Below, piece by piece: positions 17,995 to 19,384 of a DNA stretch of 64,000 nt. Within the stretch, counting starts at the first letter, position 1. Every line of letters begins with the position of its first letter. The stretch comes from Eledone cirrhosa (taxonomy: Eukaryota): assembly GCA_964016885.1 (NCBI GenBank), contig OZ024740.1:53754001-53818000 (forward strand). Reading direction: 5' to 3'. Position numbers and translations under genes: made by a program. The notes under the pieces are model-generated. The model searched no databases, had not been told where the DNA came from, and saw only the letters and a list, made by a program, of their open reading frames with translations.

Positions 17995-18305
17995 CATTAT
18001 CATTAAAGGACTTTAACATCTGAAACTACTTCGCTTTTTCTTATTCGATATATACTCCGTCACTCCTATGCGGAAAAAATATGTTGAGTGCTTGAATTGA
18101 ATTGCATCAATGTATATATATATATATATATATATATATATATATATATACACTATATATATATAATGTATATATATATATATATATATATATATATATA
18201 TATATATATATATATATATATAATGTATATATATATATATATATATATATATATATATATATATTTGGCATATTAATCAGTGAGAAATTTTGGTTATCGA
18301 GTTGA

Positions 18306-18385
18306 GCTCTGCTGAGGATCGAATTCCAACCGTGACCATCTCCAATGAAAGTTTTCGTGAAATAGTCTTTAAGACTATACAGAGC
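18306..18385 (+). ncRNA. Type I hammerhead ribozyme (family I, copy 1)
   Basis: GCTCTG-CTGAGGA-TCGAA..TTCGT-GAAA-TAGTCT(TTA)AGACTA-TA-CAGAGC; all three stems pair; predicted cut after 18379. Confidence 0.9.
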
Positions 18386-18943
18386 ATTTGAAGTTTTTTC
18401 CAAATTGAAGGATGAGTATTTTAAACTTTATTTTATCATGAGTTAAGGCTCTATTAATTTTTCCCTGGATTTCACTAAATTCTGTGGATGAATCTATATC
18501 CTGATTCTCTTTGAGTTGAGTTTGAATTATTTTTCCCACATCTTACGTTAACTATTTTTCCCATTTTGACGCTATAGTCACTTATACATTATGGAATACT
18601 GTTGGCTTTTTGCTACAATGTTTTCTATACCTTTCATTTATATATTTATACTCGGATTTCTGTCCTAGAGTGGTTAAATTATTTGTGACTAATCCCGGTA
18701 ATTTTTTATAAAAAAACCGCGATAATATTGCTTTTTGCTGAACTCCTTATTGTAGAGTCTTTTCGGAATGTTTTTAACTGTTGTTTCTTGTAAACAAACA
18801 TTCGTCTCATTCTGACGTCACCAGCCCTGTCTTTCCACATGTGCGTTTTATTTTTCATAATCACGCATGATGGTGAACTAGCCTGTTTTTAATTCCCTTT
18901 TTGGCATATTTATCAGTGAGAAATTTTGGTTATCGAGTTGAAA

Positions 18944-19019
18944 TCTGCTGAGGATCGAAATCCAACCGTGACCATCTCCACTGAAAGTTTTCGTGAAATA
19001 GTCTTTAAGACTATACGGA
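18944..19019 (+). ncRNA. Type I hammerhead ribozyme (family I, copy 2)
   Basis: TCTG-CTGAGGA-TCGAAA..TTTCGT-GAAA-TAGTCT(TTA)AGACTA-TA-CGGA; predicted cut after 19015. Confidence 0.85.
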
Positions 19020-19384
19020 GCATTTGAAGTTTTTTCCAAATTGAAGGATGAGTATTTTAAACTTTATTTTATCATGAGTTAAGGGTCTATTAATTTTTCC
19101 ACTTAATTCTGTGGATGAATCTATATCCTGATTCTCTTAGTTTTCCCACATCTTACGTTAACTATTTTTCCCATTTTTACGCTATAGTCACTTATATATT
19201 ATGGAATACTGTTGGCTTTTTGCTACACTGTTTTCTATACCTTTCATTTATATATATATATATATATGTATATATATATAATATAAATATATATATATGT
19301 ATGTATGTATATATATATAAGTGCACGAGGATCCGAAATGTTAAATCTGTATACATATACTGTGTGTGGCTGTGTGTGTGTGCG

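Follow-up and report, generated by a model that had tools for sequence, protein, structure and literature searches.

Non-LTR retrozymes of animals (Cervera and de la Pena 2020, PMC7229834, in part; Li, Clavereau and Pollet 2026, bioRxiv 10.64898/2026.07.22.740005) are non-coding units repeated in tandem, each with one type I hammerhead ribozyme and a GC content below 50%. Their motifs run to thousands, arranged as anything from monomers to long arrays, and Penelope-like elements (PLEs) are present in the same genome. Unit lengths are 170-400 nt for axolotl and those invertebrates that were tested (PMC7229834, in part) and 51-972 bp, with a mean of 650 in ray-finned fishes, in the bioRxiv study, where one of nine predicted dimers cleaved in vitro. 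Among 57 Xenopus families, 24 match known transposable elements, nearly all of them PLEs. Only a model exists so far for the re-entry of animal retrozymes into the genome: circles have been shown in a few species, the template and the enzyme have not.

The terminal regions (pLTRs) and hammerheads of PLEs (PMC8557442, in part; PMC11167929) combine a fixed internal start of reverse transcription (RT), variable 5' truncation, partial tandems, a short terminal segment and AT-rich or (TA)n targets. Hammerhead cleavage proved dispensable in vitro for an anole PLE, whose main template was uncleaved RNA, and the study that showed this also describes non-homologous internal starts for a PLE (PMC11167929). 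Plant LTR retrozymes (PMC4918200; PMC5680766, in part) give circles of the 600-1000 nt class from a monomer flanked by two hammerheads; these are type III hammerheads located in LTRs, accompanied by PBS/PPT and 4-bp target-site duplications (according to part of PMC7229834). Finally, in pseudoknot-stabilised hammerheads (Perreault et al. 2011, PMC3088659, in part) the stem I side pairs with the stem II side, replacing loop-loop contacts; such pseudoknots occur in ~40% of hammerheads, across all three types, with examples of 4-6 bp.

Here we describe a ~635-nt repeat family from Eledone cirrhosa, met as a partial tandem in a 64,000-nt stretch of contig OZ024740.1 (hereafter, the window). Judged from DNA, it appears to match animal non-LTR retrozymes in every feature that DNA can test. 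It differs from them in its 7-bp stem III, in a 30-nt loop II complementary to the leader, and in its strict restriction to (TA)n targets, with one 3' end fixed inside the unit. Its unit, which an earlier note on this DNA had taken to be longer than animal units of a few hundred nt, does exceed the 170-400 nt range but falls within 51-972 bp. The combination of a basal U.U in stem II with a firmer stem III recalls HHR_Amex2 of axolotl. The family shares all the PLE traits listed above; unlike PLEs, it has no ORF, its hammerhead differs from the minimal type with a short stem III, 50 PLE loci revealed no parent sharing its sequence, and inverted 5' partners are rare in the loci read. It resembles the plant elements in predicted circle size class and paired hammerheads; in contrast to them, its motifs are of type I and its tandem is open-ended, with arrays of up to 46 units. 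The open-ended tandem and the ragged 5' ends together exclude LTRs. We regard it as a new, well-supported family of a known class, the animal retrozymes, and its placement in the retrozyme class as highly probable.

Structure of the window copy

By sequence comparison, the insertion occupies 18265-19249 on the plus strand. It holds ~1.55 units, is 5'-truncated and ends at the family's fixed 3' end. A first full unit of 636 nt (18265-18900) is followed by a partial second unit (18901-19249) with 89.9% identity to it and private deletions of 9 and 17 nt. The (TA)n runs on either side (18113-18264 and 19250-19319) are its probable target.

The tandem carries two hammerhead motifs on the plus strand, with CTGAGGA cores at 18312 and 18948. 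The first (18306-18385) comprises a 6-bp stem I (18306-18311/18380-18385), the core (18312-18318), a U.U followed by stem II (18320-18323/18354-18357), GAAA (18359-18362) and stem III (18363-18368/18372-18377), and its predicted cut falls after 18379. With CUGANGA, GAAA and UH core elements, stems I to III and an open stem I, it is a type I hammerhead, and its fold is supported by covariation within the family. Both motifs have UA at the cut and the 7-bp stem III reported earlier (A15.1-U16.1 plus 6 bp, with a TTA loop); stem II, with U.U and 4-5 bp closing the 30-nt loop, is weak in each. Leader nucleotides 18291-18304 are complementary over 12 bp to loop II nucleotides 18327-18338, a possible pseudoknot or switch helix (18291-18338) with a second instance at 18927-18974.

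The second hammerhead (18942-19021, predicted cut after 19015) has an intact core and a stem I reduced to 4 bp, one of them G.U, by three changes at 18942, 18943 and 19017; each introduces a letter present in only 1-2 of ~100-115 copies. The energy of its stem I duplex is -2.1 kcal/mol, compared with -8.0 for the first hammerhead, and this second ribozyme is predicted to be weakened. The earlier note, which had described two intact hammerheads, was correct as to cores, GAAA, cut positions and the 636-nt spacing but not as to the second stem I. The motif layout bears out its predicted cuts, 636 nt apart, which would release a monomer of 636 nt with 33% GC (18380-19015). This monomer is non-coding, as the note had stated; its longest stop-free frame, when circularised, has 61 codons.

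The same note had singled out the window copy as a candidate for a circRNA-forming element. Because its second stem I is damaged, it is a poor one in comparison with an array on C18, described below, in which 19 of the 22 hammerheads are fully intact; it is probably a product that plays no active part and is decaying. The retrozyme-like reading thus holds for the family, whereas this copy had been over-rated. A further fragment, placed by the note at 13070-13180, is a real copy (13052-13185, minus strand) but is confined to the 3' end of the unit and has no ribozyme. It is a separate short copy belonging to a sister subfamily, which it matches at ~89-90% identity, against 80% for the window unit.

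Genomic distribution of the family

We searched 3.0 Gb of genome with a relaxed hammerhead pattern and, as control, the reversed pattern. The former yielded 2,552 matches and the latter 29; the abundance of the motif is not due to chance. Exact words of the window's subfamily occur at 108 places (hammerhead word) and 654 places (3'-region word). The fetched copies form subfamilies with 73-97% identity to the window unit and an identical order of the unit throughout. Cut-to-cut spacing in fetched loci is 608-642 nt in 26 distinct pairs, 18 of which lie at 633-636 nt. The repeat spacing in these other copies rules out that the window duplication is a local one-off, which would have spoken against the earlier reading.

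Two arrays stand out, and both terminate at the family 3' site. The C18 array (L229/L170, C18 ~2.633-2.647 Mb; 22 hammerhead-spanning units) is nearly homogeneous and intact and ends like a single insertion. The C2 array (L168/L227/L169/L228, C2 ~378.113-378.142 Mb) has 46 hammerhead-spanning units, with eight of the 46 hammerheads fully intact; it shows higher-order patterns and has PLE fragments on both sides.

Three sequence runs (contigs, one sample) showed only variants of this family, and pattern scans of metagenome and viral contigs gave no family matches. The family is not named in the titles and abstract beginnings covered by our literature search; Repbase and Dfam lay outside its scope and may already catalogue it.

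Conservation of the ribozyme fold

We aligned 60 of 147 extracted motifs, picked to span the subfamilies. The extraction pattern itself imposes part of the invariance of the core and stem III in this alignment. Stem cells are paired in 96.2% of cases, compared with 26-48% in slid controls. Four of the 17 stem pairs, divided equally between stems I and II, vary on both sides. These double-sided changes amount to 52 cells, which are not independent events, a number reached by none of 500 shuffles; counts of covarying pairs and of pair types were not above shuffles (68/500 and 396/500, respectively). Stem III, in this pattern-selected set, does not vary and shows no compensatory change. At the first pair of stem II, 38 of the 60 motifs have A-U and 22, the window's subfamily included, are unpaired. 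All four letters occur at core position 7 among relaxed-pattern matches. In copies picked by their 3' end, the core is intact in 21 of 25 rows, three of which are duplicates, and core mismatch is 1.1% (3/275 sites, small numbers) versus 3.5% elsewhere. Since stems I and II carry compensatory changes across subfamilies, the ribozyme fold has been kept across them.

Rfam returned no hammerhead at the gathering score in the whole window, nor at E<=5 in 16500-20000, likely because of the long loop II. In non-pseudoknot folding, the hammerhead fold has a probability of 1e-5 for the first motif and 6e-9 for the second, and stem II has a probability of zero in the proposed transcript. It is the pairing of the leader with loop II that weighs so strongly against the active fold in silico. 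This leader-loop II helix, of 12 bp plus 5 distal ones, is ~90-91% paired in the 60 hammerheads. It contains one clean covarying pair (GC 29, GU 18, AU 12) and three pairs that are broken in 12-19 of the 60; against shuffled loops its energy has a p of 0.012. The helix begins one base beyond stem I, and therefore its proximal part could be a pseudoknot. The unusual 30-nt loop II may thus form a putative pseudoknot with the leader, similar to those of Perreault et al. (PMC3088659, in part) except that 12 bp, extendable by 5, exceed the 4-6 bp of the examples there.

Two other pairings were considered and set aside. An extended distal stem I, joining the leader to the 3' strand, is weaker, with 68% paired against ~90-91% for the leader-loop II helix. 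An antisense segment (18743-18759) blocks the core with a probability of ~0.93 in one C18 monomer; as an off-switch it lacks compensatory change and is missing from the consensus fold, and several of its pairs are broken in 5-12 of the 29 units.

Insertion ends and traces of copying

In 87 loci picked by a 3' word, 77 of the 79 insertion chains terminate at one site, nearly all of them then running into (TA)n. Chains shorter than 100 nt make up 36 of the 79, and ten further loci missed by that step are also tail-only. The 3'-terminal segment of ~50 nt (19199-19249 in the window) stands alone between TA runs in about half of the sampled copies. Most copies picked by their hammerhead, including those from subfamilies of 73-90% identity, terminate at the same 3' site. 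This fixed end, which would be the start site of RT, lies 260 nt downstream of the cut. At its internal equivalent (18639) the unit continues with ATATAT, and a nicked TA target could therefore prime there. The TA-run flanks make target-site duplications unreadable within them.

The 5' ends are ragged and reach back round the unit by anything from 0.1 to several turns; in the loci read, upstream sequence always runs into the unit itself, never into an ORF. A start at the cut following a TA run is seen in 13 of 1,912 cut-junction matches (0.7%), spread over at least five indistinguishable positions, compared with a background for 5' starts of ~0.26% per base (by arithmetic from the 3'-word insertion chains), so that starts at the cut are not in excess. 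The pile-up of 5' ends at the cut that would mark linear, cleaved templates was not found in either the insertion chains or the junction matches. Of ~140 junctions read, two have two extra bases and two a larger deletion. These traces fit an RT that begins within an RNA and crosses a junction either still intact or ligated again, the template being a circle or else a multimer left uncleaved.

Within one dispersed insertion, neighbouring units have 50 rare substitutions in common, versus 3.0 expected from other insertions. Such sharing is present in 19 of 22 unit pairs, and the window pair shares one; it also follows from local duplication or homogenised source arrays. In two loci (L124 and L230) the region just past the cut is joined to a downstream part of the unit, or part of the unit is lost, which suggests template switching.

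Model of propagation and the nature of the template

We consider it probable that the family is an animal non-LTR retrozyme whose self-cleaved monomers form circles that a Penelope-like RT copies back. Tandem copies would be transcribed and the transcripts would self-cleave into monomers; a host ligase of the RtcB type would close these into circles, by analogy with PMC7229834 (in part). A nicked (TA)n target would then prime internally at the AU run, and rolling reverse transcription would return the unit to the genome, with the enzyme presumably drawn from a PLE.

As to the template, we lean towards a covalent circle. Conservation of the ribozyme favours it: the fold is kept in successive source elements through compensatory changes in stems I and II and needs a role, and published animal retrozymes accumulate as circles (PMC7229834, in part). 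Both points weigh against the less likely reading in which the same non-autonomous, PLE-mobilised family is copied from uncleaved linear multimers, transcribed from tandem arrays and internally primed, with cleavage and circles being side products or serving another step. Long arrays could supply such transcripts, clean read-through of the cut site is equally expected from them, and the in silico handicap of the active hammerhead fold points the same way. The anole result, where cleavage is dispensable (PMC11167929), favours the multimer, and a Poseidon PLE shows internal initiation with no need for cleavage (PMC11167929). Junction-spanning reads, which the earlier note had put forward as a check, are not diagnostic, the junction sequence being collinear in genomic DNA.

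Returning to the circle, three of five natural monomers fold well in this form. With 12 shuffles each, z values for four monomers from other loci were -6.3, -6.2, -3.6 and +0.4 (the last L024); for the window monomer z was -2.0 and for its reverse complement -1.9. Some covarying hairpins appear in the consensus fold of the units. The fixed 3' end is bracketed by a helix between 18575-18586 and 18680-18691, which is conserved in 27-29 of the 29 units with little covariation. Only a circle or multimer is predicted to allow this helix, whose loop would contain the putative RT start. A palindrome, TGACGTCA, is located at 18813-18820, ~130 nt upstream of the hammerhead, and is retained in most aligned units. 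We take it to be CRE-like, and it is a possible candidate for an internal promoter element.

The observations can tentatively be read together as a genome-wide record of rolling RT from a ~635-nt circle, primed at the AU run 260 nt from the scar on nicked (TA)n, with the leader-loop II helix as a pseudoknot or an on/off switch. If the proposed propagation is true, several subfamilies and intact PLEs provide a ready system for testing the need for cleavage and circularisation in PLE mobilisation. What the family offers is twofold: genomic signatures of how copying proceeds (one fixed internal start, clean crossing of the cut, variants common to rounds), and naturally varied ribozymes whose stems have changed in a compensatory way. 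The window's one copy is of little weight, and the C18 array is the better reagent.

Penelope-like elements and the possible source of the repeat

The PLE in the window is 5'-truncated, with an ORF at 37414-38403 on the minus strand; its family is young and large, with frames of 713 aa. The Atlas places it among HTH_animal/GIY-YIG/RT clusters, and Pfam left the ORF unnamed. The genome contains several GIY-YIG PLE families that end in (TA)n. Other PLEs have a C-terminal GIY-YIG, an upstream CxxxxCxxC motif and ends at TA runs, and would be Neptune-like by the description in PMC8557442 (in part). The mobiliser of the repeat is assigned among PLEs by analogy within the class.

We also weighed whether the repeat is itself the truncated pLTR of an autonomous PLE not found so far, which is improbable. 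The traits of 5' truncation, partial tandems, a short terminal "tail" and (TA)n targeting are those of PLEs (PMC8557442, in part), retrozymes have been proposed to derive from pLTRs (bioRxiv 10.64898/2026.07.22.740005), and the copies read number only a few hundred. Against this, multi-unit copies and arrays repeat at 608-642 nt, which leaves no room for an ORF. A tblastn of the 713-aa PLE against the unit gave no match, and PLE loci share no sequence with the unit: 20 + 30 loci with 1.5-kb flanks have only short AT-rich words in common with it. An autonomous parent, with an RT and GIY-YIG ORF between pLTRs, was not found in the unit, the loci read or these 50 PLE loci. A satellite that multiplied through duplication at the DNA level, its hammerhead being fortuitous or dead, would account for the higher-order patterns and decay of the C2 array (8/46 hammerheads fully intact), and unequal crossover may have extended the longest arrays, but this origin is largely refuted for the dispersed copies and very improbable overall, as one fixed and one ragged end at (TA)n point to reverse transcription and the stems covary.

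Other elements in the window

The 3' end of the window PLE family, which has 86,550 first-look candidates, carries a hammerhead-like motif with A for U at core position 4 (CAGAAGA), a stem II of U.U plus 3 bp and a 5-bp stem I. It occurs in the window at 36443-36473 (minus), 58703-58733 (plus) and 12983-13013 (plus), and in L066. This core variant deserves attention, sitting as it does in a young and very successful PLE family.

A second hammerhead family has an 8-bp AT-rich stem I and a short palindromic stem III, is found twice as inverted pairs and ends at TA runs. Its copies lie at 8259-8305 (minus), 8401-8450 (plus), 58437-58485 (plus), 59256-59305 (minus), 59353-59402 (plus) and 60351-60395 (plus). 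A third family (3478-3544, minus; 14318-14390, minus; 14825-14897, plus; 56063-56131, minus) has a long stem and loop II with a mismatch at its base, and a palindromic stem III. Its TTTCA(TA)n terminus is similar to that of the ~635-nt repeat family, to which it has no clear homology. Finally, a broken LINE-type reverse transcriptase is located at 62283-63205 on the minus strand (Pfam RVT_1, E 1e-10).
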